Notes under the pieces: model-generated
What the model was told of the DNA's origin: nothing
The model's input: only the letters and a program-made list of their open reading frames with translations
The model's database searches: none
Assembly: GCA_021432655.1 (NCBI GenBank)
Contig: MU271196.1
Coordinates: forward strand, 124,001 to 187,202
Direction of reading: 5' to 3'
From: Atractiella rhizophila
Lineage: Eukaryota
DNA length: 63,202 nt
Position numbers and translations under genes: made by a program
Part shown: piece after piece, positions 3,069 through 61,263 of the stretch
Layout of the letters: every line of letters starts with the position of its first letter
Numbering within the stretch: the first letter of the stretch is position 1

Positions 3069-4381
3069 TTAGACAAAAAGACTCGACTCGATGTGGGCAT
3101 TGTAACGCCCCCCTTTGACCGCAGCATCAGCTGCGCACTTTCTGATATCCTTGTCTTCATCCTCCGTTATTGTCACCTTCAGAGCACCCACGTTCTCTAA
3201 AACACCTTCCGGGCGAGTCTACACCGATGTGCTCAACATTCGTCTCTGTGGAGGGTACAAACATACGGAACCAGGAATAGGAAGGACCCATTCCTGTCTC
3301 AATGCCCAAGCAAGACAAAGCTGAGGAAGCGACACGTTCTTCTTAGCCGCCAGCGCGGATAACTGGTGAACAAGTTGAAGATTATGATCGAAATTCTCAG
3401 GCTGGATGAAAATATAAGTCGCAAACACTAGAGTGAAGAGCTATCTTACTTGGAAACGATCAAAATAGGATCTTATGTCGCCTTTGGGTACGTCAGACGC
3501 TGATTTGAGAGCTCCTGCCAGCATTCCTCTCCCTGAGAAATAGGAGCGTCAGAAAGGCAGCACTGTGATAGAGAGTTGCGAACCAAGAGGAGAATAGCCC
3601 ACGATTGGGATCTTCAATTCCTTGCACGCTTCAAGCAAGCCATTGTTTTCGATATCTTGGGACCAGACGGAATATTCCGCTTCAACCTGCAAGTGATGTT
3701 AAGACCTTGATAGGATAGCAAGTGGAAAAATATGTGCTCACGAGAGAGATAGGATACACAGCTTGAGCACGTTTCAAAGTAGCAGCCGAAACCCTAGTTA
3801 TTTGGTCAGCAACGCGCTGCCTGACACTGGGTACAAAGTTGACCACATACTCAGACAGTCCAATGTGATCGAATTTTCCCTCCTCGATAAGGCCTTTTAA
3901 GTCTTTCACAATATCCTCGATGGACCTGGAACGATCAATTCTAGCAGGCTGGAACAAATCCAGCTTCTTAGTTCCATCCAAATGAGCTAGTATCCTATCG
4001 ACACTGCCCCTCAGATTTTCGGACGAACAGTCCGGATGAAGGTTTTCCAAATTGGTTGCTCCTTTGACAGAAAGGAAGACCTTGTCGGCGTATCCGGGGT
4101 AAGCTTTGAAAAAGCGCGCGAGAAGCTTGAGATTGGCTCCCGGTTCTTCGGGACGATTGTAGAACTCGCCAGCGTTGATAAAGGTTGAACCAGAATCAAT
4201 CGCCGCTTTGATCGCTGGAAAGGCACGTTCGTCTGGGACCGTAACAGGCTTCCAGGTGCTAATTGTGGGTTTAGTGACGTTTCAATCTGAAGGGAGGAAC
4301 TCACAAGTTCATAAGACCATAGCCTAGCTTGCCCACAGTTGTGCTTTTCAAGCCGTTGCTTATCGTGATGGAGGGGGACAT
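3069..4381 (-). CDS. Aldo-keto reductase, pyridoxal-reductase-like (multi-exon)
   Basis: ATG at 4381 gives MSPSITISNGLKSTTVGKLGYGLMN. AKR motifs: LDLFQPARID, EGKFDHIGLSE, QLCLAW...LPIPGS, ENVGA. Stop TAA at 3069-3071 after GGRYNAHIESSLFV. Confidence 0.9.
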
Positions 4382-8668: not shown

Positions 8669-9186
8669 GTTTCTTGTGCTTGAATCGTTTTCTCTTTGTT
8701 CTGTTTCTATCGAGTTCGTGTTGAAAGAAAGATACCAGTAGGCTGCTTTTTGATACCCAAAGAATACCTATGCGAAAGAACTTTGTTGCTTGTGATTAAT
8801 ATTGCCCATAACTTGATAGCAACCAAATTGAAATGTGAAATGTTAATTTTACTTCGCGGAGTGAGTTCATGAAGACAGGGAGACATTGCATCGATGTTAA
8901 TTCCACTCCAGCTCTCAGCTAGTATGCCATGGCACCGTAACATGAACATCGTCAATCCAATGGCGTGACACGTTAACATGTTATTAGATTAACATTGACA
9001 TTTAATTAAGCATTAAACAGCAACGAGGCACGTGCAGTCGGCGTCTAATGACCGGAAACAAACGACGATTTCTCCTAGTACTTGGTTCTTCTTCACGGCC
9101 TTCATCCCAACGTCTCCTTCTCTTCCCCTTCGTACTCCTTCTCTACTACCTGCCCAAGTACTCCTAGCCTGCGCAAACGGGGGACA

Positions 9187-12100
9187 ATGACGACGACGCC
9201 CACCGGAGTTCCGCCGTCCTCGGGACTGGCTTACAGCGGCGTTGGACGTACCTTCCCCATGACAGCAGCTGGCGTGAATGGTGGCGGTAGTCGCGGTGGA
9301 AGTGGGAGTGGTACTCCGATAGCCAGCGGAAGTGGGAGTGGAGCAGGACTGACGCTGAAGGATTTCCTGCCGTTCGACATCATGGACTCTGACATGTTCT
9401 CCGTCCACTACTCCTCTCTTCTTTCACAGGATCAACTCGTCTATGCTGGTTAGTCGTCTCATTATCTAGTTCCAGCCATTCTTTCAGATTCATATATTGA
9501 CGTTTGTGCTGTGCTGTGGATATAGGCATCACGCCAGAGGAGCAAAAGTCTGTTTTCTCCCAGTTGAAACGACAAGGAATCCACGAATTCATGCTCGCCC
9601 ACGCCTCCTCCTCCATCCCACATCTCCGACGGGTCCTAGCCTGCTTCGGAGTCAACGTTAGTCCATCCCTCCTCTTCCCAGCCTAGCCCAGCCCAGCCAT
9701 CGGAGACCACAAATGCTGACGTCGGTGTTCTGTGGGACACAGCCGGACTCCCTGAAGATCCAACCGTCCGATTTTTCAGCAGCGCTTTACCGTCCAGAAA
9801 CTATCACTTCTCAATACCCCGAGTTGCTGGCTGAACCGTCGACGGAGAATCAGATCAAGTCGAGGTTATTGACCGCTCTCTCTTGCACTGCTACTAAGGA
9901 GTGGGTACCGCCTCCATTCCCCGCTTTTCCTTTCTTGTGACCCTCTTGCGAGTTTCATTGATTGGTGGATGGATTGTGTGTGGCGGACAGGTTGAGGAGG
10001 AGAGAGAAGATCAGGAAGTACCATTCGGTTGACCATGTCCTCGATTTACTCAAATCCAGCAGGAGGATCATCGTCCTCTCCGGAGCTGGCGGTTTGTCTC
10101 CCCACCTGTTATCTTTCTACCTGCAACTTGCGAAGTGAAGGCAAACATAGCCGCTGACTGACTTGTGGATTGGATATGTTTTAGTGAGCACAAGCTGCGG
10201 CATCCCCGACTTCCGTTCCGAGAATGGACTTTACGCCAAACTTCAGGAGAGGTATCCAGAGCTCCAAGACCCACAGGACATGTTTCGTTCGTTCCTTTCG
10301 CTCTCCATTTCCGTTTCTCGGTGCTAAACAATTGCTGACGGTCCTTTTTGTGTCCGGCACAGACATGGACGTGTTCCGTGATGACCCCTCCATCTTCTTC
10401 TCCTTCGCTCGCGAAATATACCCCTCCCAATTCACACCGGCGCCGTCCCACCAATTTGTCAAGCTTCTTCAAGACCAGAAACAGCTCCTTCGGTCTTACA
10501 GTGCGGTCTCCTTGCTTCTCATTTCCATGCGCCTTCACTGACCGGTGTGGTGTCGCAATGGCTGACGTGCAGCCCAAAACATCGACGGTCTCTTTCTGAA
10601 ATGTGGAATCGACCCCGCCCGCTCGATCGAGTGTCACGGATCCTTCAAAACCGCCTCCTGCATCTCCTGCAAGACTCGTGTGCCAGGGACGGAGATCGAG
10701 GCGGCACTGTTGAAGCAGGAAATGGAGTATTGTAAGTTATGTAGAGCCAAGTTAGAGAGTACTGTGGAGAAGAAAAGGACGAAGGGAGCGCCGAAGAATT
10801 GGCAGAAGGGAAAGAGGGCTTTCGATGATGACTTTGATGACGATTTGGTCGATTTGGAGGGAGAGTTGAAGAGGATCGTCATGAAACCAGTACGCGTTCC
10901 TCGTCCCTTTGACTCGCGAATGTGGTGATGGATGGCAATTGGCAGGATATCACGTTTTTCGGTGAGAAGGTCGCCAACACTTATGATCGCTTTTTGCTCG
11001 CCGACCATAAGAAGGTCGACTTGATCGTCATCATGGGCACTTCGCTGCAGGTGGCTCCTGTCAGTCAACTGGTTTGTCCGTCTTCCGTACCATCCATGTC
11101 TTCTTTGAAATGACCGATTCAACGACATAGGGCATCTCCCACATACAGTGTACGCGTCGTTTCTCTCCAAATAGAAATACCCATTCATGACATGTGCACA
11201 GACCTCAAATTCTCATAAACAAAGAACCCCTCCCCTCCAACCGCATAAATCCCGACATCGCCCTGTACGGCGACTCCGATACCATCGTCTCCTACCTATG
11301 TCACCGTCTCGGATGGTCTCTGCCCGTGTGTGCGACGTCTAAATCGGCGGAAGACCTGCGTCGAATATCTTCCAACATCCGGCGAAGGGAGCGGAACGAG
11401 TGGGTGTTCGAAGGGGCAGCGATGGGAAGGGAGTGGGAGCAACAAATCAAGGAAGGGATTAAGCCGGTCGAGTATTCGGAGACCTGGTTCCTCGAAGACG
11501 ATGGGAGTGAACTCAGCGAAGTCGAGGATGACGGCGACGGAGAGGGGGACGGAAGTGGAGTTGGGGATGGAGAAGACGGAGAGGGGGGAGGGAAGGAGGA
11601 GTGGGACGGCCTACAACCGTTCGGTGTCGTACCAATGGGCATTGGTTTCCTCGCGGCCACGAGTCCAGGTGGAGGACCCCTGTTCCAGTCTGCTGTGGAC
11701 TTTGATCCTCCCCCCCTTGTCGGGGCACAGATGGTCTCCTTCGGAGGCTATAGAGACCCATACGCGCACGCTGGCGGGTCGTATGGGTTTGCGGAAGGAG
11801 GAGGATATTGGAGGGAAGACCTGGACAGCACCCCGACTGAAGACGAGAAACCTTTCGTTCACGGGTCACAGATGCAGCTTTCGCACAGACATCTCCTCAT
11901 CCCACTCCCAATCGCTCCCACGGCTTCGGTCGCGAAACCGAAGAAGAAGAAGGTGTATTCCAAGCGCACGCCAGAGGGGAGGTTGAGGGCGCCGAAGGCT
12001 TGTGAAGCTTGTAAGTACCTCTCGTTTCTTTTCCCGTCCTTTCGTGGAAAGAGGCCTGATGGTTTATGGTTGGGGCACAAAGGTCGGAGACTGCACGCTC

Positions 12101-12306
12101 GCTGTCAGTTTGCGGTGACGGATTCGATCTGTGCACGATGCAGCACCATGGGCCTGCGCTGCTCTTTCGAGGATGACGGATTGAGGGAGGATAGGAGAGA
12201 GGAGAGCGTTGAGATTCCAGAGTTGGGGAGTATGAAGAGGAAGATGTCGATGGGGCACGAGCTAGAGGAGGAACTGACGAAAAAGAATCGTCGAAAGACG
12301 AGGTAG
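9187..12306 (+). CDS. SIR2: Class I NAD-dependent deacetylase (Sir2/Hst1-like) with C-terminal Zn(II)2Cys6 domain
   Basis: Spliced motifs IIVLSGAG / STSCGIPDFRS, YTQNIDGL, ECHGSF, CxxC...CxxC (CISC, CKLC), MKP-DITFFGE, GTSLQVAPVSQL, PQILINKEPL. The last large ORF continues into CEACRRLHARCQFAVTDSICARCSTMGLRC after removal of intron 12011-12082. Confidence 0.9.
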
Positions 12307-12505
12307 ATTATTACGACCACCGTTAGGAAGGGAAGGATGGATGGAGTTCGAATTTCTTATCCTTGTTTATTGTTGTATATTCTCTCACTCTCAGACTCTG
12401 TCGGTTCTTGTTGCTATCGAATGATTCGATTGATTACCGCAATAGTATTCACATGTAAATCATAATCTAGCAATCCTGCACGCGAAAGAGTCGTCAGGGC
12501 ACTGA

Positions 12506-14846
12506 TCAAAGTATACCAGTGCCTCCACCCAACCCCTGAATCGTCTTCCTCAAAAGATCCCAATCGCTTTCTCGGGGGTTCGCCATCTCGCTCCCAATCT
12601 CATAAACGTAAAGTTTGCCATCACTGCTCCCAACCACCGTCCTCTTCCCTTCCTTATCCCACGCCAGCTTGTTCAGTCCCTTTGGCGCTGCAGGGTTCAC
12701 CGTCGTCGACACCACGGGCACCTATATCGATCCCGTCAGTCCGGAAGCAAGGTAGGAAGAAGAAAGGGGACGTACCTCTGTATCCACGTTCAAATTCCAA
12801 ACGTCGAATTTTCCGATACCGTCGACAGTCCCGAAGAGTGCGGGATGGTGAGGATGCCACTTAACATCAAATACGTAGTCGTCATTCTCCTCCATACTAG
12901 CCAGAGGGGCAATGGCCTGAATCGCTCCTCCTCCCGCCGCCCTCTTCTGCCCAGCACCAGCCTTCGCGCGCCAGAGCTTGACTGTCCAATCGACTCCACA
13001 AGTGAGGAAGAGGTCGCTAAAATCCACATTTCCATGAAGAGGATGGAAGTGCATTCCCATCACCGGCCCACCATGTCCTCTATACACCTCTCCACTGACG
13101 AGACCAGCCTTGGACCCAGCCCGATCGTACCTGTTGGCGGCATACACGTTCCCCTCTTCCGTACCGACGCAAAAGCTCGTCGTCTCACCCTCCGAAAAGG
13201 CCATAGCGGTAACAGCGACCTCGTCCGTCTTATTCGCGTTCGGGAGGACGAGTTGGAGGGTCTCTTGAGGCTGAGCGAGCATATCAAGGACCCAAGCACA
13301 CACCGTCCCGTCCGTGCTCGCACTAAGGAGGTTATGAGCATTCTGCGTACCCACGATAGACATAGAATAAATAGGATGAGTGTGTCCCGCAGACGCTGAG
13401 AGAGGAGTCTTGAGAGCAGGGTTGGGAGAACGGTTGCGGGTGTCCCAGAGGAGGATCTGGCCAGAGTAGGTACCGCCGATGATGTGATTGGGGTGGAAGG
13501 GGGTGAAGGAGACGGAGAGAACGTCGGACGGAGCGTGGAAGGTGTATTCGGGACGTGCAAGTAAGTGGAGGTTCCAGACGCACGCGATGCCATCTGGCTC
13601 GTTCAGTGCGAGCGGATTCTTGTTGTAGGACGCAACGCAAAGTTCCGGGAACTGAGTGAAGGAATCAGGTGCGGTTGTGGGATGGAGTGGAAGGTGGGGA
13701 CAGACCTTGGGTGACCAATCTACGTCCGTCACCGATCGATTCTTGTTCCACCGCTCGTCCCAAAAGGTGCAAGCAAGTCGCACGCGCTGTCGGTTCTCAT
13801 CGTCCCTACCCCACCCCATCAATCAGTCGGTCGTTGAAAGGTAAAGAAAGCGGAAGTAAGAGCGTACATGTCATCTCCTCCTCCACCTGAGATGGAATAA
13901 TCTCTCAAATAATCGTATCCCTCGCTCAGAGCCCTCATCGCGACCTTTGTGGCATCATCCAAAAAGTCCCTAAACTCCGGGTCCTCCAAAACAGCCTCCA
14001 ACCTCTCTCCTTGCAAACCCTTCACCCTCTCCTCCATCAACTCCTTCTCCAACTTCTCCCTCTCCTCCGCAATTTCCTTATCCAATCTCTCCTTCTCAGC
14101 TTCGAATTCAGCTTTGAACCGCGCACGGAGCTCAGCGTCGCTCTCCCTCCCAACTCCCCCAGCCGAATCTAAACCGTCCGTCCCCTCCTCCCCCTCCCCG
14201 ACCTCTCCCCCAACCCCTACGCCTACACCGACGGCGATTCCAGAGGAAGGACGCTCAGTGCCAGTACTCGACCCTGAACCCGAAAAAGTCGTCTGTATCC
14301 CCTTCTCATACACCAACTTCGGACGTGGCGCTATCTCGAACACCTCCAACGTCACATCGGCGAATTCAGGGACTACTTGACCGGCGAAAGAGCTCGTGTC
14401 GAAGTCAGTCCCGACAGCCGTGACACCTGTCGTGGAGGGTGCCCAGGTGGGGGCGTTGGCCTCTTTACCGCCGCGGGAGGAGGAGGAGCCGCCATCGTCG
14501 AATGCGGATAGGGGAGTCGAAGGCGGAATGGGCGATGGTGACGATGGTGATGGCGCAGAGAGGAGGCCATTCACGAGCTCTTCTAGTTCTCGACGGGACG
14601 TTGGCGCTTTTTCGTACGGCGTCTGCCCCAATAATCTCCATTAGTTCTCTCAATCGTGTAAACAGAAATGTTGGGAAGTGGGAGAGGCGGCAGAGTGAGA
14701 ATAGGGCAAACCTGTGCGCCTGAAGATACCCCTCCGCCGCCACTGGCTGCAGCCCGTCGCTCTGCTTCTCGACGTGCCCGCGCCTCTTTGAGCTCAGCGA
14801 GTTTGGCACGCTTTTCTCGGATTTCTGATTTGTGCCGTGATTCCAT
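12506..14846 (-). CDS. Cytoplasmic dynein intermediate chain (WD40)
   Basis: N-terminal helix MESRHKSEIREKRAKLAELKEARARR, light-chain site YEKGIQT, WD region RSVTDVDWSPKFPELCVASY, GGTYSGQILLWD, GHTHPIY, DWTVKLW, DVKWHPHHPALF. Confidence 0.92.
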
Positions 14847-17201: not shown

Positions 17202-18620
17202 ATGCGACGATTCTCCCATAGTTCCTCGTTGAACCCTTTGCTGTTAAAGCCGACGCTTCCTATTGTGCACCGGGCTATGATACCTCCTCGAGTGTTTCCG
17301 ACATCAGGTTTCCAAGTAATACCAGAGTCCACTCTGCTCGACGAAGAAACGCTTCCTTCTTATCATCCTGCCCAATACTACCCAGCACGGATTGGTCAAG
17401 TCTTAAATACACATTATCAGATTGTTTCAAAGGTCGGTTTTGGGACTACATCGACGGTGTGGTTATGCAGGGATTTGAGGTATGGAGCAGCGCAGTGGAA
17501 CTAGGTATTATTTGCTGACTTACAACAGGTCAGCGGTGGCGGAGTATAAGGTCGTCAAGATCCTCACCAAGTCTGCTTCTAGAAATGGGAATTTTGAACT
17601 CGACGCCTTTGAGCATCTAAAATCAAAGCCATGGAAACATGTTGGAAAGGAGTACGTGCATATAATCGACGAGCGATTTTCCTTGGTTTCAAATGAAGCC
17701 TCAGCGCATACGTGCTTGGTCTATGAACCGTTGGCTATCAGCTTACACGACCTTCGTAATCGCCTCCAGGGAAAATGGCCAGTGGAACTTCTTACGAAGC
17801 TGATAGTCTACCTCCTTTTAGGACTCGATTTTCTCCATTCCGAAGCTCAGCTTATTCATACAGGTATGCCTCGAGCTCTCCTCTTTATTATTAATTGCTG
17901 ACTGTGGTGTAGATCTGCAACCCAAGAACGTCCTCTTCACGATGAAGGATCTTTCCGTGTTGTTGAAGACTGAAGAACGTGAGATCCGATCCCCTATCCC
18001 TCGCAAGATTCTCTCCGATCGCGTCATTTATCCTTCTATAACCCCTCCATACACCATCAACTTCCCCATAATCTGCGACTTCGGCCAGACGCGATTTGGC
18101 GATCTCGCACCGTGGAAGGATGACATCATGCCTGATCTCTTTCGAGCACCGGAAGTTGTACTTGACATGCCTTGGAGCTATCCGGTTGACATTTGGAGCC
18201 TGGGAATGCTGGTTTGGATGACTGTTTACGACAAGCACTTGTTCAACGCCAAAGACAGTGAAGGGAATCTTTCAAATGCTCATCACCTTGCAGAGATGAT
18301 TGCACTAATGGGAATGCCGCCGAAAAAGTTTTTGAAAGGTGAGAGGGCCCAGAAATATTTTGACGAAGACGGTGAGCACAACCGTACCAAATTGTTCTTG
18401 TTCTCACTGTGTCCTTCAAGGTAATTGGAGGGGCCTTGCTCCCATACCGAAGAAGTCATTTGAGGATTTAGAGACCCGTTTTGAGGGCGACTGTAGGGAG
18501 TTGTTTCTCGCTTTCATTCGGAAGACGCTCAGGTGGGATCCGGCTGAGCGACCGACAGCAAGCGAATTATGGGGAGATCCGTGGCTTGCGACTGCATGGG
18601 GTGATGAAGTGCTGAAATGA
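17202..18620 (+). CDS. SRPK/Sky1-like (CMGC) protein kinase, copy A (3 introns)
   Basis: YYPARIGQVLNTHYQIVSKVGFGTTSTVWLCRDL, VVKIL, IHT|DLQPKNVL, ICDFG, FRAPEVVLDMPWSYPVDIWSLG, LRWDPAERPTASEL. Confidence 0.9.
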
Positions 18621-19453: not shown

Positions 19454-22050
19454 CGTTACTTGCAACCTACCAGCCCTAACTGTATCCTTCTGTCCCTTGC
19501 TGGGGAGGGACGATCACGTGATCTCCACCGACGAACACTCGCTCTGAGGCCTCTGAGGGACTGTCGGCATTACGAATACACTGCAGTATGCGGCTCTCCA
19601 GCGAGAGGGGGAGCTCCCAGACATTTTTCAGCCGGACGCTCGAATTTCACAATACTCTCCCTTGCAGCTAACTGCCAGTGACTGGTTGTGACCCAATGTC
19701 GAAGGTTTCCGCACCGTGATTCTGGACATGTTATCGACTATCACTTGTCGCATGGTTCACTTGTCAAAATATACCTCATTGGATGGTAACGAGAGTCAAA
19801 GCTATTTACTAGCAACCGAAAACAACAATGCGCTCATCCTGCACATCGCCATCACATTGGGGCATGTCCGATAAAAATATTTTACCCACCTGGTCTGAAC
19901 TTTGGACGCCAACGTCGTGGCGACGAGACCCATTCACCCCCATCTGTGGCCTGAATGTGTGGTGGGCCGGTTCCACCGATCCAGACGAACTGCCTCGTCA
20001 CAAGAGGGGTCGCTCTGAAAGCTCCAGCCATGCTTTTCTTCTTGATGATTGCTGCGCTTCCAGAACCCAGAGTTGGTGCCAGCGGAAGAAGCTTGCCTAA
20101 AATTTGTTGTAGCCACCTTACATAACTTACCGTTCTTCTTTGCATGGCTGGGACGAAAAGAGTCAAGCTTTGGAAGCTGAAAACTGGAAAATTCTGGAGA
20201 CTTTGTAGCCTTGAGGCTTCAGCAGCTCCAAACGCTGCAACCTGAAGGAATTGAATGTCGTATGCAGTCCAGCTTAGGAGACAGAACACATTACGCGCTC
20301 AGCTTGACATGGTGAGTTGATATGGACATCCTTGACGTAATGACTCTGATATACGGGCCAACTGTAGTTTGCAGTGGGTTGAGTAGGGTTTCGATTCCCA
20401 AACTTGTTCCCTTGCACTCTTCTCGCCTCAGGCTCTTGCTGTCACCATGCGACAATTCTCCCTCAGTTCCTCGTTGAACCCCTTTATTCTAAAGCCGACG
20501 CTTCCTATGGTGCACCGGGCTATGATACATCCTCGAGCGTTCCCGACGTCTGGTTTCCAATTAATACCAGAGTCCACTCTGCTTGACGAAGAAACGCTTC
20601 CTTCTTATCATCCTGCCCAATACTACCCAGCACGGATTGGCCAAGTCTTAAATACACATTATCAGATCGTTTCAAAGGTCGGTTTTGGAACTACATCGAC
20701 AGCGTGGTTATGCAGGGATTTGAGGTATGGAGCAGCGCAGAGAATTAGTTATCATACGCTGACTTAAAACAGGTCAAAGGCAGCGGAATATAAGGTTGTC
20801 AAGATCCTCACCCAGTCTGCTTCTAGAAATGGGAATTTTGAACTCAATGCCTTGGAGCATCTCAAATCAAAGCCATGGAAACATGTTGGAAAGGAATACG
20901 TACATATAATCCACGAGCGATTTTCCCTGGTTTCAAATGAAGCCTCAGCGCATACGTGCTTGGTCTATCAACCGTTGGCTATAAGCTTGCACGACCTTCG
21001 TAATCGCCTCCAGGGGAAATGGCCAGTGGAACTCCTTACGAAGATGATCGTCTACCTCCTTTTAGGACTCGATTTCCTCCATTCTGAAGCTCAACTTATT
21101 CATACAGGTTTACCTCGAGCTCTCTTTTTATTAATTGCTGATTGTGGCGTAGATCTGCAACCGAAGAACATACTCTTCACGATGAAGGATCTTTCGGTGT
21201 TGTCGAAGACTGAAGAACGAGAGATCCGATCCCCTATCCCTCGCAAGATTCTCTCAGATCGCATCATTTACCCTTCGATAACCCCTCCATACACCATCAA
21301 CTTCCCCATAATCTGCGACTTCGGCCAGACACGATTTGGCGATCTCGCACCGTGGAAAGATGACATCATGCCTGATCTCTTTAGAGCACCAGAAGTTGTA
21401 CTAGACATGCCTTGGAGCTATCCAGTTGACATCTGGAGCCTGGGCATGCTGGTTTGGATGACTGTTTACGACAAGCACTTGTTCAACGCCAAAGACAGTG
21501 AGGGGAATCTTTCTAATGCTCATCACCTTGCAGAGATGATTTCACTGTTGGGAATGCCGCCAAAAACGTTTTTGAAAGGTGAGAGGGCCCGGAAATATTT
21601 TGACGAAGACGGTGAGCACAGCCGTACCAAACTCTTCTTGTTCTCACTCGGTCCATCAAGGCAATTGGAACGGCCTAGCTCCCATACCGAAGAAGTCATT
21701 TGAGGATTTGGAGACCCGTTTTCAGGGCGACTGTAGGAAGTCGTTTCTCGCTTTCATTCGGAAGACGCTCAGGTGGGATCCGGCTGAGAGACCGAAAGCA
21801 AGCGAATTATGGGGAGATCCGTGGCTTGCAACTGCATGGGGTGACGAAGTGCTAAACTGAACCTGACTTCTTTGATTGTGAAGCAATCCGCTCCGCACGG
21901 GAGCTTTCCTGTGCTGAGAACATGACTAGGGTGGGAAAGGAGGTCTTCTTGTATCTTGCCTGTATCATGTTACAGGAATTGCAAGCAAATAATCGAAGAA
22001 TCCTGCACTCGAGTTGACTTGAAGTTTGTTGCCTCAGCGGCGCCTCAGCT
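19343..22050 (+). repeat. Copy 2 of the tandem segmental duplication
   Basis: Matches copy 1 but lacks the equivalent of ~15120-16450. Confidence 0.9.
20447..21860 (+). CDS. SRPK/Sky1-like protein kinase, copy B
   Basis: Same exon structure and kinase motifs as copy A, with scattered substitutions and no stop or frameshift seen. Confidence 0.88.
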
Positions 22051-38692: not shown

Positions 38693-40917
38693 TTAGTAGG
38701 CAATGCCTTGCCCTTTCAGATACTTCTGCAGGTCGTGATAAAGCTCCAGTTGATCTTCCGTTGAGAGACCATTGATGATTGTTCCAAGGACTGATCCTAC
38801 GCTGACGTACTGTACTCGGACTAGGGAGGAGTAATATCTACCAACACGTTAATAAATTCACTAGGTTACCCAGGATACTGCTCACACGTAGCTGAAGAGT
38901 CCCATCAAAAACCTGCATGTCTGTTAGCTAGCTCACTGAATCCTCAGAATGAGAGAGCACGCACTGGCAGTCCATCCTGTCGGTCAAGCCACCATGTCCG
39001 GGAATAGAGTCGCCAAAGTCCTTGATATTGAAAGCACGCTTGAAACCTGACGCGAAGAATCCTCCAAATGGAGCAACAAGAGAGGCAAAGATTGCGAGGA
39101 CGATAGCGTGCACCTGGAAAGGTGCCCAGACGAAGTTCTTCACCTCTCTCCTTAACTGCAGATTATCTAATTTAGATTGGCTAGGAAAAAAGAAATCAAA
39201 CGCACTATGTACGACGCGAAGGACGCGAGGTTATCGGGAAGAGGGAACTCATGCCAAAGAAACACCGGATTTGGCTGACAATGGACATCGGAAAATGCTG
39301 TCTGAGAGAAGTCCCGAACGGAGCAGATCAAATAGTTGAATCTCATGAAAAAGGTAGCCCACTATCCCACGAATTAGTCAGCGCCATCGAGGACAGAGTC
39401 AGTCAGCCTTACAAAATAGGAGAAAACAACAGTCGCAAAAAAAGCGCCGACGAAACCCTCGACAGTTTTTTTTCGGTGAGAGTTTTATGAGTTGCGTGCG
39501 ACCGAAAAGCATGCCTGCAAGGTGTCAGGAGTGGAGCAAACACTAGGTTTGGAATAACATCTTACCGAAGACGTAAGCCGAGATATCGTTCATGATAACG
39601 AGGGAAGCAGGGACCCAGAACCAGATTAATCCCTGGAGATATGTAAGCAAAGTTGGTTGAAAGTCAGGGAAAAGTACCTCAAGAATATTATTCACAATGA
39701 AGTGCCTGTTTAATTGTCAGTGTCTGGACCACCCGTCCTGAGGACAGCTTTCAGAGCAAGACTCACGAGCAAGCAACGATGTAGAGCAGCGTCATGTGAA
39801 TCCAACAGAACAGCCCAAACTGGCGTCTCAGCTGGCCACGTTTAAGGCTTCCAACGAATGACACGAAACCGATGACGTAGAGGATGAGGGAAATAAAACG
39901 ATGGTGTTGAGCAAAGGGCAAAAGGTACGCGTCGACCAGTACAATATGCTGTGTCTTAATCAGCAACGCTCAACATACTTTAAAGCATTGCCATACCTTG
40001 AAATATTTGATGATACTTTCCCCATAGAAGAAGTAGTTGGCAACTCCAAAGAAATACCAACTCGTCGCTCGTCCCCACCTGTCGCTCTCCTTCCTCTTCT
40101 CCTCCCTCCTCAAAACTCTTTTCTCATCAACCACTCCACTGCCATTATCCTTCCCATTCCCATCATACGCCTTCCCAAACAAATTTGTGAGCTCTCGATA
40201 AACTGCCGTCTGCACAAAGAAGACCAGCATGATCATCCATCCATGGCCAAGCAACAACAGCATGATGAATCCACCTATCATAGCCAAAGACCAGATAGTA
40301 CGAGTGATGACAGCTTGAAGCCTAGCGGAGGAAGATCCAGTATGATCAGCTCCATGATTGGGCTCCGGTTTCGCCGGGACTGGCGACGGCGAATGATGGC
40401 GAGGAGACAGGCTGGAGGGAGCGCGCGGAGTGCTCAATGGAGGCTCGAACGTCGCCACTTTCGGGGTGGTTTGATCGGAAGATACGGGGGGAGAGGTCAG
40501 GTGTGTTTCTGCCTCATCATCCGTCGTGTCAATTCCATCTCCCCCAACTTCATCGGACTCCTCGTCCGTTTCCGTCGTGACTGGAGGAGCGAATGACGGC
40601 AGCGGAGCTGGAGCTTCTAGTTTTGGGAGCTCTTGCGGCGGGGGAGCGAGAGTCTCGGGAGCTTTCGAAGGAGATAGTGAGGGGGCAAGTGCAGGTGGAG
40701 AGGGGACGACCGTGATAGGTGATGGGACGTTTTCGCGTCCTTCTGGCGGTAATTCGGTCGATGAAGTGAGAGCTTCCTCTTTCTGTTGTCTCTCTTTTGC
40801 TCTTCGGCGAGCCTTAGCCTTTTTTGAGAGCGACGTAGGCGCTGGAGGGTTCGAGGAACTCGACAGTGTAGGCGAGAGAGGCGGATCTGAATCTTCGTCA
40901 TCGCCCTGCACTTCCAC
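38693..40917 (-). CDS. CDS1: Phosphatidate cytidylyltransferase (5' end uncertain, may extend to ~41008)
   Basis: [55 protein letters not shown] signature, C-terminal [14 protein letters not shown]. Confidence 0.93.
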
Positions 40918-42605
40918 TGCACCGACATGTCAGCAAGCTGTTGTTTCATCTCCGACATTTCAAAGTTACAGACGATTACAACATAGGAGACCGATGGGAA
41001 GCAGGCATCTCAAAATGTGGTCCCTTTCGTAACGTGGTTAATGGGTCTTTTGCCTTTCACAGCTTGCACCGTTTTGCACATGGTCCAGCCAATTCTCATG
41101 CACAGAGATCCACTAGGATCTACTCCAACTGCTGCCAAGTTTTGAGAAGAACTCCATGTCACTTAGAACAGTGAATTGAAGTTATAGCTCTGTAAAATAG
41201 AAAGGGCAGAATTCAATGTACCTAGCGAAAAATAATTTAATTTGGTTAGACACCTAATCCAATTGAAAGCAAGTAACGATAGTGTGCATAACTTGATGAT
41301 CCTTCGTTCATTCTTCCCAAAAAGAGTCTTATCCACTCAACGGCATGATTCAAAGCATCTCTTTTCCCAGTCGCTCTCAAATCACAAGCGAGAGAGACGA
41401 ACCAAAGTATTACAGCAAGAGAGGAACAGTAGCAGATAATAACAAATGATCAATCCACTCTCCAGCCATAAGCATCGTGATTTCACTGGCCATGGGCTTC
41501 TGCTCGTGTTGTTCACGTGTCCTTACAACACCGGTCTTACGAGCAGAAAAGGCGCATCAACCGGTTATGTCTTGCTTAACGAGTACATCTGCACAGAACA
41601 CACCAGAATCTCTGAATAATCAGGATGCTTCGCTATTCCTCTGGGAGAGAACTATGCCCTGCTGCCTCACATACCAGAGCTAGGATCCAGCCAACTGCAA
41701 TGATTCAATCCCCCTCAAACACTTTAACCAAGGGAAGAGACGAAGGAGGCCGCAGGGCACAAAGTCAGAAGGGGTCGTGGTGTTGGATCCACAAGATCTT
41801 CCCCTCGCACCCAGGGTCTGTTCACAAACATGTGTTGCTCTCCACCCACAATTGCAACGTGCGACACCTACGTCGCCAGTCTCTCCACTATGAAAGGGGT
41901 ACAACACATCCCACCGTCTATATTCATCTACTCTGCTAAACACGGATAATAGGTTACACGTGAGAAGAGACGGAGAGGTAGCCGTGCACTCCGTTCAAAG
42001 GGACAGTCGTCAAGTCGGAGTGCACGCTCGATCTCTCCATTCTTTCTAGCTGCGGCATATATGAGAAATAAGTTCTGTGCGGGCTGGCAGCAGGCCGGGT
42101 TTGACATCACGACCTCCATACCTCTCCTTTCGCATGCCACGTTGCACGTCTATGCTTCAAATGGTACGTTGCACCACCAAGCGTCTCATCCACACAGTCC
42201 TCATACAGCACAGAGAAAGAAGATGGATAAATAGAAAGACGCACATCCTTCCCACCTTCCCCCGCTGAACAACTTCCCCTCTCCTCCTCCTCCAACTCCT
42301 AGCTTGCTCCCTAGTAGACTATCAGGCTTTTTCTTGGGCGGCATGCTCTTCTCTAATCTTGCTGTCAATAAGCGTGAGCGTACTGTAAATATAATAAACA
42401 CGAACGCTGAAGTGGTTGGTGATGTTGGCGTGGCAGCTGTTGAAATCGCATCTACCTCCATCATCAAGATCATTAAGCTGCATCATCAGCACAACTATTT
42501 CGGGAATCGGGATTCCTGCCAACCAAACAACGCGGAACAACCAAACGACGATTCAAAGAATACCACCATCTTTGATCCTCAAAAGCTGCACCGAGGCAGG
42601 GCAGC

Positions 42606-56207: not shown

Positions 56208-57544
56208 GAGGCTCATTCACGGTTTCCAATATGTTCTCGCGCTCCAAATAAGCTATTGGAACACCGATTCTTCCAATCATGTGCGTCCATGGCAATATGG
56301 ACGGTATCAAGCAACAACTATGGTTGAGGTACTTGAGATGACCGTCGTGCTTATCTCTTATCAAACTAAACAGACACAAAACACTTGCTGTGCTGACAAA
56401 GGCAGCAGTTTTTTTTACTTTGAATCACGCTTCGGATCGAAAGACATAGCTTGAAAACGCAGCATGTTGTAACGACGCGCGATTTACATCAACAAGCCAA
56501 ATACAACAAGCAAGCAGGCTACTCGGAAGGATATCCTCAATCGGCCATGAATGATAGGAATGTGCTGATGGATCCATTAGCTCCTCTTGATGATGGTTTT
56601 TTAGATACACTCTCACAATGTCGCCAGCGAGCGACAGTCCAAAGAATTTGATCTATATCCCCCACCTCGATCCATAGGTGATTTCACGCGTCTTCTTGCC
56701 TTCAGGCTTAACCCTCTTCTTTCCCCTTCAATTCCTCTAGGAACCTAAGAGAGCAATACTAGACACGAAAAGAGCAGAATCGCGCACCGAGATTTCTTGA
56801 AACTGAAGAGAGCGCAAAAGTCGCCGAGTATATCCCCAACATACTAGCCGCTTTCCATCGCGCCTTTCTCCAGCGCGATTTCGTTGGGGATTTTGTGTAG
56901 AAGGAGGAGGGAGACGGAGCTCTAATTAGGTTATAGTCCGATCTTTCGTTGGAGAGAAGTCGAGCTTTCAACGACCACGAACGCAGAACTGTCGAAGCAG
57001 GTCCAAGGCATCTCAGTATCAAGGAAATCGGATACAGATATTTGAGGAAATATAACATTTAGCAAGTACTCCCTTGATCTGGAGGGCTGAAAGGCGAGAT
57101 CCTGCATAGTCTGCAAGTATTTGAGTGGTGAGTACTCGCACACTTGCGCACGAAACGACGTAGAAGTGGGTGGGATGCAACTTGCAACCTTCAAGGTGGC
57201 TCATCAAAAACTCCCTTGCTCCAGTGTCATCTGCTATCTGCTATCAGAGTGCACGTATGGTGGAGAGTTCCAAAAGGCAAGAGGCAAGATTCTAACATGG
57301 TTCCGCTGTGATTCTAAAAGCAATGAACTGATGAGCTGAATTTGACGAGGTTGCCTGCATAATCGCGCTCTTGACTGTTTGGCTTTCCAGAGGACAAGGG
57401 ACCAAAGCTTAGCGGCCATTAAGTAATCACAGAGCCAAGGTATTGACATTGATTTAGATTGAATTTCTTTTCTGCGTTCAATTTGCGCCGCGATACGCAC
57501 CACCGTCCTAGTCATCCCATAATCCAATCTTTCAATTTCCTCAC

Positions 57545-60500
57545 ATGTCCACAAATCCCATCAAGGTGTTCAAAGTACCTGAGAACATCAAGAAAGAGAA
57601 CCCACTTGGTCTACGAATCCTTTGCATCGACAATGGAGGCGTCCGCACTTTCTCAGCCCCATACATGCTTGAGCCTATCATGCTCAAGGCCGCAGAGCTT
57701 CTTAACGTACCAGAAGGCGAAGAGCTCAGACCTTGCGATGTTTTTGATCTCATTTGTGGGACCAATACAGGCGGATGGATTGCACTTATGCTCGGAAGGC
57801 TAGGAATGACCGTTCGGCAGTGCATTGCGGCGTATGAAGAGATCGCGCGGAACGTATTTCTCGAAGATGGTTTGAGCACCACTGGCGAGTATGTGTACTC
57901 GGCGGAGAAGCTTGAAGAGACTTTGATCGCCATCATTCAGCGACACATGCTGTCTTCTGAAGATTCTGCAAGGTCACTTCCTATGAAGGACCCTTCTCTG
58001 CAGGACAGATGCAGGACGCTCGTCCTCTCTACTTATGAGGCCAACATTGTCGTTTCTACTGGAATGCGCACCTATGACATTCGTGGTGCTGGATCCGCCT
58101 CTCGATCCGCATCCTCATATGTCATCTGGCAGGCTGCAAGGGCTACCTCCGCTGGGCCTCCCTTCTTTCCCCCTATCAACGAAGATTCCACCCGCTACGT
58201 CCAGTTGGGCTGCAACAACCCTGCTGCAGTGGCTCTTGACGAGACCAAGCGAATTTGGGGAACCTCCAGTGAGATTGCCTGTCTTGTGTCTCTCGGCCCA
58301 GGAGTTGCACGGGCTGTCGAGTTGGGTCGCACTCGGGATGATATTGAGGAAGCGTTGAAAGCGATAGTCGCAGATTGCTCAAACATCTCGAATGATGTGA
58401 AGGTGAAGATGCAGGACCGTGAGATGGGTCATTGCTATTATCGCTTCTCAGTTGATACATTCGGAGACTTCAGGTGGGAGGATTGGGAGTGGAAGAACAA
58501 CGTTGTAGGATGCACGAAAGCTTACATGGAAGCAATGAATCACGAAGTGTCCTCCGTGACGAGATCGCTCGTGCAAGGTATTCTCCATGTTGCTTGATTG
58601 TTGGCAGCATGCTGACTTGCCACGGTCAGGCTGTAAAAAACGCATCGCTGTGCCCAGGAAGCTTCCGTTGCCTCATCCAGGAGATTGTTATGGAAGAAAT
58701 GACGAAGTTCAGTTGGCAATCACTTGCATCCTCACCGACAAAAAACATCTTGCGATTATCGGTGGTGCTGGCAATGGGAAGTCCACTGTGGCCCGACAAA
58801 TCCTGCATGCGAAGGAAGTCAAAGACGCATTCAGGACCATCGTGGATGGTGAGGAGGAAGACTTTCGGTTCTGGGCACGATGCGACGTTTTCTCTACATT
58901 TTCATCACTCTCCACATATCTTTGCAGGCAGGTCTTCGGAATAGCCCCTCAAGCTGGAGAAACTGAACTCAGTGCTGTTGCACGATATTTCAAGAACCAC
59001 AAATGTCTCCTTGTCTTGGACAATTTTGAAACTCCCGCAGAATCTGACACAGAGAGCCTCCTGCCATTCTTTCAAGCTCTTCTCTCTGCCAACAATACCT
59101 TGGGGTCCGTTCTCATCGTGGCGCATCGGGGACATCAAATCTATCGAGTGAATGTCACCGATGTGAAATTTCAAGAGCTGAGAATCAGTGGCCTAAGTGA
59201 CGCCGCCTGGATGGACCTGTTCAAGCACCTGTACACAGGAAAAGAGAAGTGTACAGAGCACGTACTCAAGGCCATCGTCACTAAGCTGGATCATCACACC
59301 CTGTCCCTCAAACTCTTTGTTCTTCGTGCCAACGGATCAACGAAACGCATCTCTGCTTTGTTGCAGGAGTGGGAGGAGAAGAAGACCGAAGTGCTGTGGG
59401 GCGAAGATAGCGAAGAGACCCAAACTCTCGGGACCTCAATATCTTTTTCACTCAGTTCACATCTGCTGACAAGACATGAAGACTTAAGCATGTTTATTCT
59501 TGCCGTCCTGTCCTGGACCCCTGACGGGCTTCTTGACAATGATATTAGAGCTATTACAGATAGATCGTGTCTTCCTGATTTGAAGGAGTCAGACAAGATC
59601 ATCAGCTCGATTTTATCCGTCGGACTGGCTGAGAACACGGACGATGCCCTGACAAAGTCGACACGATTACGCATGCTCGCGCCAATTCGTGAACACGTTA
59701 ACTACTTAGTTTCGCGATCCGATCCTCGCTTTAAAACCACAACCGTCTCCCTTGAGCCTGTAACTGAGCATCTCATCCATAAAGCTTGGGGAAATGTTCG
59801 AAAATTTCAAGTTGAGGGTGAACGGATCGGGATGTTGTGTTTCCGCAACGATCATCCGAATCTCGAACATGTACTTCTGGCTGGTCTTGAACATCTGCAG
59901 GATCCGACACCGTTGATCCATTTTCTCATGGAAATCTGGCGCTTTCAGTATCTCCAGCATCTTCTCTCAATCAAACTACTGCAGCGTACTATCTCCATCA
60001 CAAATTGTAATTGGTCCTTAATGAGATCCACAGCGGACTTGACATTAGCGATGAGCTTTGCATTCCAACAGCAAGGGTCTCGACAACCGGCATTGAAACA
60101 CTTCAAGGAAGCGAAAGAGCTGTATCTGGTGGAGGAAGATCGGCAAGGGCAAGCACACTGCATTCGTGGCATCGGGGAGATTGAGCAGCATCGAGGGCAG
60201 ATGGATGAAGCATTGAGACATTTCGAGGAAGCAAAGGAGCTGTACCTGGCGGTTGAAAGTCGGCAGGGACAAGCCCACTGCATTCGCGGCATTGGAGAGA
60301 TTGAGCAGTATCGAGGGCGGATGGATGAAGCGTTGAGATGTTTTAAGGAAGCAAAGGAGCTGTACCTGGCGGTTGAAAGTGTACCTGGCGGTTGAAAGTC
60401 GGCAGGGACAAGCCCACTGCATTCGTGGCATTGGAGAGATTGAGCAGCATCGAGGGCGGATGGATGAAGCTTTGAGACGTTTCGAGGAAGCGAAGGAGCT

Positions 60501-61263
60501 GTATCTGGTAATGGAAGATCGGCAAGGGCAAGCCCACTGCATTTGTGGCATCGGAGAGATTGAGCAGCATCGAGGGCAGACGGATGAAGCGTTGAGACGT
60601 TTTGAGGAAGCAAAGGAGCTGTGCCTGGTAATGGAAGATCGGCAAGGGCAAGCCCACTGCATTCGTCGCATCGGAGAGATTGAGAAGCATCGAGGGCAGA
60701 TGGATGAAGCGTTGAGACATTTTGAGGAAGCAAAGGAGCTGTACTTGGTGGAGGAAGATTGGCAAGGGCAAGCCCACTGCATTCACCGCATTGGGGAGAT
60801 CGAGCAGCATCAAGGGCGGATGGAGAAAGCACTAACATGTTTCGAGGAGGCAAGACAGATGTATCTGATGGTGGAAGACATACAAGGTCAACTTAACTGT
60901 CTTTTCAACATAAGTGAGCTTTATGCTGGAGACCCCCAGAGTATGTTCAAAGCAATTGCAGTCGTTGAGGAAGCAGTGCAGTTGAGCAAAGCAGCTGGCA
61001 ACTACTACGAAGCTAGGAGTACAAGGTGGTTGGCCGAACTCCTCTTCCTGTCCTGCAAGTATCACCTTGCCGGGCAGAAAATCATTCTGGCCCGTCAACT
61101 CTTCACAGATTGTCTGGCCACTTCTGATGTCGAAGCTTGTGACCATCTGCTTCACAAGATTGGGGAGGCGGAACGATTAAGGACGACATGTGGTTGTACT
61201 GGCTGTGGTACTGTCCATTCCCTCACAGCCTCTTGTGAGCTGACCTCCCGCTGCAGGATGTAG
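57545..61263 (+). CDS. Fungal NLR: patatin-like domain - NB-ARC - TPR array (frameshifted at ~60380)
   Basis: Patatin fold (LRILCID, RPCDVFDLICG, IALMLGRLGM, IWQAARATSA, NNP, CLVSLG, YYRFSV). Intron 58578-58629 joins it in frame to an NB-ARC domain (CYGRNDEV, P-loop GGAGNGKS, Walker B LLVLDNFE), followed by 40-aa TPR repeats. Confidence 0.9.
60090..60900 (+). repeat. Array of ~7 highly conserved 120-nt TPR-coding repeats
   Basis: Unit ALRHFEEAKELYLxxEDRQGQAHCIRGIGEIEQHRGxMDE starts at about 60090, 60210, 60330, 60469, 60589, 60709 and 60829. Confidence 0.95.

Follow-up and report, generated by a model that had tools for sequence, protein, structure and literature searches.

A Sir2/SIRT1-class sirtuin gene of Atractiella rhizophila that continues in frame into a linker and a complete Zn2Cys6 cluster

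In Saccharomyces cerevisiae, Sir2 and Hst1 deacetylate histones in an NAD-dependent manner and repress the loci to which Sir4/Rap1, Net1 or Sum1-Rfm1 tether them; a distinction between Sir2 and Hst1 orthology is not meaningful outside the Saccharomycetaceae. To our knowledge, Sir2/SIRT1-class sirtuins are thought to need partner proteins to reach chromatin, and there are fungi that do without the Saccharomyces SIR, Sum1 and Net1 adaptors. Ume6 recruits Rpd3-Sin3, a class I zinc-dependent histone deacetylase (HDAC), through non-covalent contacts. The minimal DNA-binding module of Gal4 (residues 1-65) is made up of the zinc cluster, a linker and a short dimerisation helix. An earlier note on the DNA analysed here had stated that Zn2Cys6 domains usually sit at the N-terminus; a known exception is the yeast repressor Ume6, for which the title of a paper by Anderson et al. 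(1995), as cited in PMC2447501, names a C-terminal Zn2Cys6 cluster that binds URS1.

The window analysed is a stretch of 63,202 nucleotides from A. rhizophila (contig MU271196.1, positions 124,001 to 187,202). Its + strand carries a gene of 11 exons, with an ATG at 9187, 796 codons and a stop at 12304-12306. The best explanation of this gene, and the one we consider probable, is a Sir2/SIRT1-class deacetylase extended by a linker and a complete Zn2Cys6 cluster, which would tether the enzyme to DNA loci. All ten introns have GT..AG ends and the joined frame is open over the 796 codons; eight of the introns, including 12011-12082, are directly visible in spliced contigs from three transcriptome-like public runs (X3, X5 and X7). 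No run type is recorded for X3, while X5 and X7 were only guessed to be RNA, the RNA nature of all three being deduced from their intron-less contigs; X1 is a DNA run, and the contigs derive from a k=31 graph. Of the runs X1-X18, contigs of X1, X3, X5 and X7 were used. The presumed start codon is the ATG at 9187, the first in frame, with X3 cover from 9199 on. The gene model is as follows.

9187..12306, + strand: whole coding region, with eight introns seen as GT..AG joints in X3, X5 and X7 contigs; the joined exons form one open frame
9187-9448, 9526-9656, 9743-9900, 9991-10091, 10185-10286 and 10363-10500, + strand: exons 1-6
10573-10889, 10946-11075, 11131-11149, 11202-12010 and 12083-12306, + strand: exons 7-11
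11131..11149, + strand: presumed 19-nt micro-exon, part of the W-H-L-P-H-T-V stretch directly before PQILIN
11202..12010, + strand: exon 10, which completes the sirtuin fold and encodes the linker, the basic patch and cluster cysteines 1 and 2; X3 records 10 and 11 show no joint inside it
12307..12526, + strand: 3' untranslated region, at least to 12526, where X3 record 11 ends

We infer the micro-exon from X3 record 10, in which the 149 letters between the pieces ending at 10889 and starting at 11202 match 130 (10946-11075) plus 19; both flanking introns have GT..AG ends and the micro-exon residues align with those of orthologues without a gap. The contig end at 12526 is a graph break common to the DNA run X1 and is not a mapped poly(A) site. 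A patatin-NACHT-TPR gene is also present in the window. The longest alignment of the sirtuin was to a Microbotryomycetes protein, but in view of its identity of only 40% and of the patatin-NACHT-TPR gene, a yeast of the Pucciniomycotina was not adopted as the source, which was taken to be a basidiomycete of probably filamentous growth.

The sirtuin core and the motif that follows it are encoded as follows.

9991..11328, + strand: Sir2/SIRT1-class catalytic domain (about residues 196-495), with six introns inside its coding sequence, recognised by Pfam SIR2, blastp and alignment
11392..11436, + strand: post-core motif R-N-E-W-V-F-E-G-A...W (residues 517-531), common to Sir2/SIRT1 orthologues

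Four exon frames matched Pfam SIR2 (PF02146) at 44.7, 34.1, 30.9 and 26.8 bits (cut-off 24), jointly spanning profile positions 4-180 of 180, and blastp gave 40-48% identity to basidiomycete Sir2 proteins. The orthologues fetched included those of Schizophyllum commune (P0001), Microbotryomycetes sp. (P0024), Botryobasidium (P0013) and Tulasnella (P0003). Aligned with eight homologues, the protein has the NAD-binding motifs GAG..GIPDFRS and TQNID and the catalytic His319 (10635-10637) within E-C-H-G-S-F, and its structural zinc ribbon is intact, the CxxC pairs Cys 327/330 and 351/354 facing the Cys pairs of the homologues. The earlier note had called these three elements intact, as they are; they lie in exons 4-7, upstream of the interval 11194..12306 to which it had assigned them. 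The N-terminal DUF592 segment (PF04574) scored 20.3 bits against a cut-off of 24.5 and covered only the last 29 profile positions; scanned basidiomycete orthologues mostly gave similarly weak matches, with a few above the cut-off. The post-core motif aligns with H-V-W-L-F-E-G-A-type motifs in seven of the eight homologues, P0041 being divergent, and it may resemble the C-terminal regulatory peptide of SIRT1. The gene product is predicted to be a Sir2/Hst1/SIRT1-class (class I) NAD-dependent lysine deacetylase.

All eight aligned orthologues terminate in a short basic patch, and the A. rhizophila protein continues from there, its tail beyond the orthologues' end comprising about 220 residues, cluster included.

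11485..11934, + strand: lineage-specific linker, acidic and Gly-rich at first (11485-11598), then rich in Gly, Pro and aromatic residues
11935..11952, + strand: basic patch KPKKKK (residues 698-703), NLS-like, at the position of the orthologues' C-terminal basic patch and stop
12001..12162, + strand: Zn2Cys6 binuclear-cluster motif (residues 720-749), with an intron splitting the second Cys codon
12011..12082, + strand: intron 10, 72 nt, GTAAGT..AG, phase 1, frame-preserving and free of stops
12163..12306, + strand: C-terminal tail of 47 residues, acidic and then with a basic K/R-rich end, and the stop (12304-12306)

The linker would be a disordered addition to the ancestral C-terminus; it holds no Cys and no Pfam family (exon 10 scanned alone), and no blastp alignment to a homologue ran past residue 578. 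The KPKKKK patch is a putative NLS. Relatives were sought at several depths. Among 1.84 billion representatives, all 39 phmmer matches were confined to the sirtuin part; the six-Cys cluster was found in none of 40 fetched homologues and Pfam Zn_clus in none of the 19 scanned. Word-index searches with the tail frame gave no match among 4247 candidates for longer relatives and, for near relatives, one match among 2937 candidates that was limited to the first 20%; with sirtuin exon 7, none of 121 candidates matched. A metagenome scan confirmed five loci from 200 pattern matches, all restricted to query residues 2-51, and the six-Cys pattern occurred in none of their six frames, a search that an intron-split cluster would escape. 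The ESM Atlas gave no usable match. The earlier note knew of no characterised protein of this architecture, and no description of a Sir2 plus Zn2Cys6 architecture was found in the literature and no example in the databases searched. We rate the gene as a real, lineage-restricted new combination of two well-known domain families. Because no relative with the same tail was found, the tail is probably young, and the deep conservation that would argue for function is missing.

The earlier note had read a single open frame from the PQILINKEPL motifs through the acidic linker and KPKKKK into the cluster, and the frame 11191-12306 (+) is indeed open for 371 codons. A second frame (+1) is likewise open in the tail, for 245 codons (11249-11986), so that ORF length alone is weak evidence there, and that the linker is coding is concluded from the variant pattern and the RNA contigs. 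Open frames arise easily in this GA-rich region, which would favour an artefact, that is, an assembly or frame error joining two unrelated frames or a chance six-Cys pattern. Three sets of data oppose such an artefact. Firstly, no indel was seen between 11202 and 12306 in independent DNA contigs (X1) or in spliced contigs (X3, X7). Secondly, the synonymous bias of strain variants is specific to the sirtuin frame. Among the best-supported 40 of 107 differences, which make up the variant table, 10 of the 12 in the tail are synonymous in this frame (expected fraction 0.23-0.30; P 1.4e-5 to 2e-4), and in exon 10 the listed variants are synonymous in 8 of 10 cases in this frame vs 1 of 10 and 2 of 10 in the other two. 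The nine listed indels fall in the 5' upstream region or UTR, in introns 4 and 8 and in the 3' UTR, where a 1-nt insertion at 12481 is tolerated, and none lies in coding sequence. Linker and cluster are coding and under purifying selection in this frame. Thirdly, the cluster pattern was absent from the six unspliced frames of the window (126,400 residues) and from all 200,000 shuffled versions of the last 120 residues, which hold exactly six Cys, every one part of the pattern; the six-Cys pattern is therefore more than chance. We regard an artefact as very remote, and a genuine extension of the sirtuin frame is assumed in what follows.

The first two cluster cysteines lie at 12001-12012, and completion of the cluster depends on removal of intron 10. 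The splice 12011-12082 proposed in the earlier note was recovered as the joint 12010/12083 in an X3 contig (depth 380, shorter side 255 letters) and in an X7 contig (196 letters). X3 depth fell from 380 to 165 in the bin containing intron 10, and no form retaining this intron was present among the listed contigs. Once spliced, the spacing is exactly C-x2-C-x6-C-x8-C-x2-C-x6-C, in frame with the sirtuin core; residues 720-749 conform to the family spacing C-x2-C-x6-C-x5-12-C-x2-C-x6-8-C and also fit a stricter PROSITE-style pattern, in which basic positions and a small flanking residue are specified. Exon 11 alone contributes four of the six Cys and scored 14.8 bits with Pfam Zn_clus (PF00172; E 0.031, profile positions 7-34 of 39, gathering score 21), and the unspliced frame scored 10.8 bits; a PDB sequence search with the exon 11 part gave no match at E up to 10. 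Between Cys2 and Cys3 lie the basic residues R, R, H and R, and the 22 residues before Cys1 contain KPKKKK and further K/R, forming a basic arm. The cluster departs from the usual form in lacking the Pro before Cys4 and in having Leu-His in its first loop in place of the two DNA-contacting Lys of Gal4. By eye, the post-cluster tail has no heptad pattern and contains Pro and Gly, and a Gal4-like coiled coil or dimerisation helix does not appear evident in it. The fungal-specific transcription factor middle domain (Fungal_trans) was not found in the frame with Pfam. Given its C-terminal cluster, no Fungal_trans and no heptad, the protein is not a canonical Gal4/Ppr1-like zinc-cluster transcription factor, although it would carry a Zn2Cys6 domain.

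These properties can also be read differently. The fusion may be real and the cluster not be a sequence-specific targeting device; it would then derive from a neighbouring zinc-cluster gene, as a fragment captured recently, and act as an NLS or basic chromatin anchor, mediate protein interactions or autoregulation, or as yet have no function. Such a reading would fit the apparent youth of a tail absent from relatives, the lack of a middle homology domain and of an evident dimerisation helix, and the atypical residues at the Gal4 base-contact positions. It would also fit the small number of listed variants within the cluster, only 12120 and 12154, both synonymous, so that selection on the cluster is barely sampled. 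Set against these points, the cluster keeps all six Cys at the exact spacing, with its basic residues between Cys2 and Cys3 intact, 10 of the 12 variants over the whole tail are synonymous, and the cluster-building splice occurs in two runs that are about 1% and 3% divergent from the window in sequence. We consider a cluster without a targeting role unlikely, and less likely than the tethering that we favour.

Continuity of the transcript was assessed from the RNA-like contigs, which cover the entire tail. X3 records 10 and 11 together cover 10363-12526; within exon 10, record 10 extends up to 11533 and record 11 begins at 11504, and X5 and X7 contigs cover 11382-11532, 11683-11825 and 11803-12010. 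No single contig bridges 11533/11534 beyond the 30-nt overlap, and in one X3 record the 26 letters ahead of 11504 are unrelated. The data support one unbroken mRNA over the sirtuin core and the tail but stop short of proof, since the two RNA contigs only abut at this overlap (11504-11533). The loose end found there would be compatible with the cluster being made mainly as a separate small protein of about 120-200 residues from an internal transcription start and the in-frame Met598, Met630 or Met677 of exon 10, the long sirtuin tail then being incidental. The stretch from Met677 to the cluster would indeed resemble the usual N-terminus of a zinc-cluster protein, and mean X3 depth is higher for the 3' contig (380) than for the 5' contigs (242-245). 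However, parts of a gene cannot be ordered by contig depth, and a k=31 graph yields contigs with a 30-nt overlap wherever it branches. In addition, variants with a synonymous bias lie upstream of these Met codons already, at 11370 and 11631. Finally, the earlier note had raised the possibility that transcripts end or meet a stop before about 11900; RNA-like contigs span the whole tail and the sirtuin frame has no stop before 12304, so that any complete sirtuin mRNA encodes the fusion. A separate small protein is thus improbable, and the single fused polypeptide is retained as the product of the gene.

For this polypeptide, the following mechanism can be proposed. The cluster, placed after the NLS-like K-rich patch, would bind DNA, most likely at CGG-type sites like other Zn2Cys6 domains and, since no coiled coil is evident, possibly as a monomer. 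Bound in this way, it would hold the enzyme at specific loci, and transcription there would be repressed as histone acetyl groups are removed in an NAD-dependent reaction; the fusion would represent a covalent version of the adaptor logic of Sum1-Hst1 or Ume6-Rpd3. It probably arose when the ancestral stop, directly behind the C-terminal basic patch, was lost and the 5' exons of a zinc-cluster gene were captured, and the alignment of orthologues displays this possible route, in which a stop codon is lost beside a C-terminal NLS and the first exons of a transcription-factor gene are captured. Sequence-specific self-targeting is what we infer, not what we show. More tentatively, and with somewhat less than even confidence, we suggest a one-polypeptide silencer in which the captured cluster delivers NAD-dependent deacetylation to defined promoter or repeat sequences without adaptors of the Sir4, Sum1 or Net1 type. 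Intron 10 could act as a switch in this protein, as its retention would place 24 extra residues between Cys2 and Cys3, yielding an isoform that is not targeted. If the mechanism is true, the gene offers a directly testable single-protein case of NAD-coupled, locus-specific repression and a compact natural design for targeted deacetylation. A natural fusion, if to a sequence-specific domain, would also hint, as a 'Rosetta stone', at recruitment of Sir2 by zinc-cluster proteins in basidiomycetes.

Compared with known systems, the protein resembles the basidiomycete Sir2 orthologues and animal SIRT1 in its class I core (40-48% identity), in a mostly sub-threshold DUF592-type match before the core and in the W-x-F-x-G-A motif, acidic stretch and basic patch that follow it. 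In contrast, the basidiomycete orthologues have 414-687 residues and stop at or just past the basic patch, where the A. rhizophila protein adds about 220 residues that include the cluster. With the minimal module of Gal4 it shares a six-Cys spacing within the family range, a preceding basic arm and, with about 47 residues after the cluster, a similar size; the cluster is N-terminal in Gal4 and C-terminal here, where no heptad helix, middle homology region or activation domain is evident. Ume6, to which the protein is likened by cluster pattern only, is also a long protein, for the most part disordered, with the cluster at its very C-terminal end, and would have the same job of bringing a histone deacetylase to DNA, but the HDAC is recruited non-covalently in that system and the enzyme is a fused sirtuin in this one. 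With yeast Sir2 and Hst1, the mechanism proposed here would share the tethering logic; separate proteins supply DNA recognition to the yeast enzymes, whereas in A. rhizophila a DNA-binding-type domain lies within the same polypeptide as the deacetylase.

A frame of 371 open codons (11191-12306, + strand) starts with the end of the sirtuin fold, PQILINKEPL followed by DIALYGDSDTIV and a CHRLGW stretch, and runs through an acidic Gly-rich stretch and KPKKKK to a C-x2-C at 12001-12012; the remaining four cluster cysteines are located 3' of 12083. Openness by itself is little proof in this GA-rich region, where another frame (245 codons, 11249-11986) is open as well. Of the 18 public sequencing runs listed by a search, 2 contained at least half of the sampled words, and four runs (X1, X3, X5 and X7) were compared across 8800-12600. 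X1 covers introns and flanks and thus behaves as DNA; the contigs of X3 (kind not on record) and of X5 and X7 (both guessed to be RNA) omit GT..AG intervals and therefore behave as spliced RNA.

Splice features of the sirtuin gene (joint: last base before / first base after)
9447/9525, + strand, joint in run contigs
9656/9743, + strand, joint in run contigs
9900/9991, + strand, joint in run contigs
10090/10184, + strand, joint in run contigs
10286/10363, + strand, joint in run contigs
10500/10573, + strand, joint in run contigs
10889/10946, + strand, joint in run contigs
11131-11149, + strand, putative 19-nt micro-exon between introns of 55 and 52 nt, placed by contig bookkeeping and homologue alignment
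12010/12083, + strand, joint in X3 (depth 380, 255 letters on the shorter side) and X7 (196 letters)

In X3 record 10, 149 letters (130 + 19) separate the piece up to 10889 from the one that begins at 11202; both introns around the micro-exon have GT..AG ends and the encoded residues align without gaps to orthologues. Joining the exons by coordinates gave a single open frame of 796 codons, from the ATG at 9187 to the stop at 12304-12306. The earlier note had proposed an intron at 12011-12082 and a sirtuin and a Zn2Cys6 domain in one frame: the joint was recovered in X3 and X7 contigs, and the frame is uninterrupted after splicing. This 72-nt intron keeps the frame and has no stops, as expected by chance in about 1 in 10 cases, and an isoform retaining it would carry 24 additional residues between Cys2 and Cys3; the spliced form alone was seen in X3 and X7. 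A WD40-repeat gene (12725-14640, - strand) converges on the sirtuin gene, the two 3' ends being at most a few hundred bases apart; they may overlap at 12483-12600, where the depth of X3 increases.

The X3 contigs span 10363-11533 and 11504-12526 and overlap by exactly 30 nt, as is usual for neighbouring contigs at a branch of a k=31 graph; the cover is therefore continuous, with a single molecule not proven by any one contig. One X3 record carries 26 unrelated letters 5' of 11504, at this branch in the acidic Gly-rich stretch. The run contigs show no joint within exon 10 (11202-12010), and the first stop in the sirtuin frame is the one at 12304, so every complete sirtuin mRNA with the exon structure seen here encodes the fusion. 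An internal start may additionally yield a small cluster-only protein; that such a separate protein is the main product appears improbable.

Four exon frames further upstream exceed the Pfam SIR2 cut-off of 24 (44.7, 34.1, 30.9 and 26.8 bits), and DUF592 matched weakly (20.3 bits, below its cut-off of 24.5). The catalytic His and the NAD-binding and zinc motifs, described earlier as intact, were all found in the spliced protein and aligned with eight homologues: GAG..GIPDFRS, TQNID, GTSL..APV and PQILIN, together with His319 and the zinc-ribbon Cys 327/330/351/354. Identity by blastp was 40-48% to basidiomycete Sir2 and animal SIRT1-like proteins, with no alignment past residue 578. By the SIR2 profile, the catalytic and NAD-binding motifs and the zinc ribbon, the protein is assigned to the sirtuin family. 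In the alignment, a W-x-F-x-G-A...W motif 3' of the core (11392-11436, + strand) is conserved in basidiomycete Sir2 proteins and as far as the SIRT1-like proteins of animals, and it may resemble the C-terminal regulatory peptide of SIRT1.

The exact spacing C-x2-C-x6-C-x8-C-x2-C-x6-C is found at residues 720-749 of the spliced protein, preceded by a basic arm and with R, R, H and R between Cys2 and Cys3; in a regular-expression test, these residues also fit a stricter PROSITE-style pattern. All six Cys of the last 120 residues belong to the pattern, and none occurs in the 216 linker residues examined (500-715). No copy of the pattern turned up in the window's six unspliced frames (126,400 residues), nor in 200,000 shuffled versions of the last 120 residues; its occurrence by chance is very unlikely. 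On exon 11 alone, Pfam Zn_clus matches in part, over profile positions 7-34 of 39 (14.8 bits, E 0.031), and on the unspliced frame, where the intron interrupts the cluster, it reaches 10.8 bits; exon 10 (273 residues) matched no Pfam family. With Zn_clus scored on exon 11 or the unspliced frame alone, the sirtuin protein is predicted to carry a Zn2Cys6-pattern domain, and it differs from a canonical zinc-cluster transcription factor.

The runs diverge from the window by ~1% (X3 and X1) or ~3% (X7). Among the best-supported 40 of 107 differences, 12 fall in the tail beyond the sirtuin core (11370 to 12154), and 10 of these are synonymous in the sirtuin frame (eight third-position and two CTG/TTG changes), against an expected fraction of 0.23-0.30 (P between 1.4e-5 and 2e-4); the other two are E651G and H681R. 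For the ten listed variants of exon 10, the synonymous counts by frame are 8 (sirtuin frame), 1 and 2. All 9 listed indels lie outside coding sequence (5' upstream region/UTR, introns 4 and 8, 3' UTR). The synonymous bias and the confinement of indels therefore indicate that purifying selection acts on the tail in this frame across the sampled strains or close species. Alongside the spliced joints, these counts leave an artefactual feature highly improbable.

The tail frame was searched by phmmer (E up to 0.001) against 1.84 billion representatives. In all 39 hits, the best stretch lay within query residues 2-124, which hold the end of the sirtuin and the motif conserved after its core. Pfam found no Zn_clus in the 19 proteins scanned (the 18 longer hits and P0001, Schizophyllum commune Sir2), and the six-Cys pattern occurred in none of the 40 fetched proteins; the 20 for which names were obtained are Sir2 or SIRT1 proteins from Agaricomycetes, Tremella, a Microbotryomycete, chytrids, Allomyces and animals. 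Word-index searches, a metagenome scan and Atlas gave no further relatives of the tail. This survey may have missed fused orthologues in close relatives, because the representatives stand for 50% clusters, the retained intron split the query cluster and the material searched included no genome of this organism or its near relatives. Full-text literature searches gave no description of a sirtuin with a Zn2Cys6 domain, in agreement with the earlier note, which knew of no such characterised architecture. By term look-up, a Cryptococcus/Basidiomycota sirtuin paper mentions zinc solely as the sirtuin structural zinc (PMC5399365), a Ustilago sirtuin paper contains none of the terms looked up (PMC10126416), an Aspergillus fumigatus sirtuin preprint refers only to an unrelated Zn2Cys6 factor, and sirtuin terms are absent from a preprint on rust transcription factors. 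Each family is already known; their combination appears undescribed and lineage-restricted, as far as the searches reach.

Elsewhere in the window, three frame-shifted ORF pieces at 57512-61260 (+ strand), matching Patatin (57512-58594), NACHT and TPR (58560-60392) and TPR_12 (60337-61260), look like parts of a single fungal NLR-like Patatin-NACHT-TPR gene with introns, which speaks for a filamentous basidiomycete. Two ORFs (17822-18421 and 20768-21700, + strand) match the same part of a protein kinase profile (positions 139-220) and may be tandem paralogues. Fragments at 3685-4281 and 39973-40929 (- strand) belong to ordinary metabolic genes (aldo/keto reductase and CTP_transf_1, a cytidylyltransferase family).

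Like this protein, the eight aligned homologues have the W-x-F-x-G-A motif and an acidic stretch, and they stop in a short basic patch, whereas this protein has a K-rich patch at the same point and continues into the cluster. As the homologues end there and clusters are usually N-terminal, the gene probably lost an ancestral stop beside the basic patch and took in the 5' exons of a zinc-cluster gene. The cluster could be a young captured piece devoid of sequence-specific function, which we consider rather unlikely. A Sir2/SIRT1 orthologue with its own DNA-binding-type module is the best reading, and probably the correct one. Of the self-targeting silencer put forward earlier, the fused architecture stands by the splice and the single frame; the silencer function itself we infer. 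Yeast Ume6 reportedly has a C-terminal cluster, judging by the title of Anderson et al. 1995 (cited in PMC2447501), and would be a precedent for this position. Once imported into the nucleus, the cluster would bind specific DNA sites, of the CGG type if it behaves like its family, and possibly as a monomer, because no coiled coil is evident after it; the 220-residue linker, being flexible, would allow NAD-dependent deacetylation of neighbouring nucleosomes by the catalytic core. The same working logic is found in Sum1-Hst1 and Ume6-Rpd3, and is proposed here in one chain.
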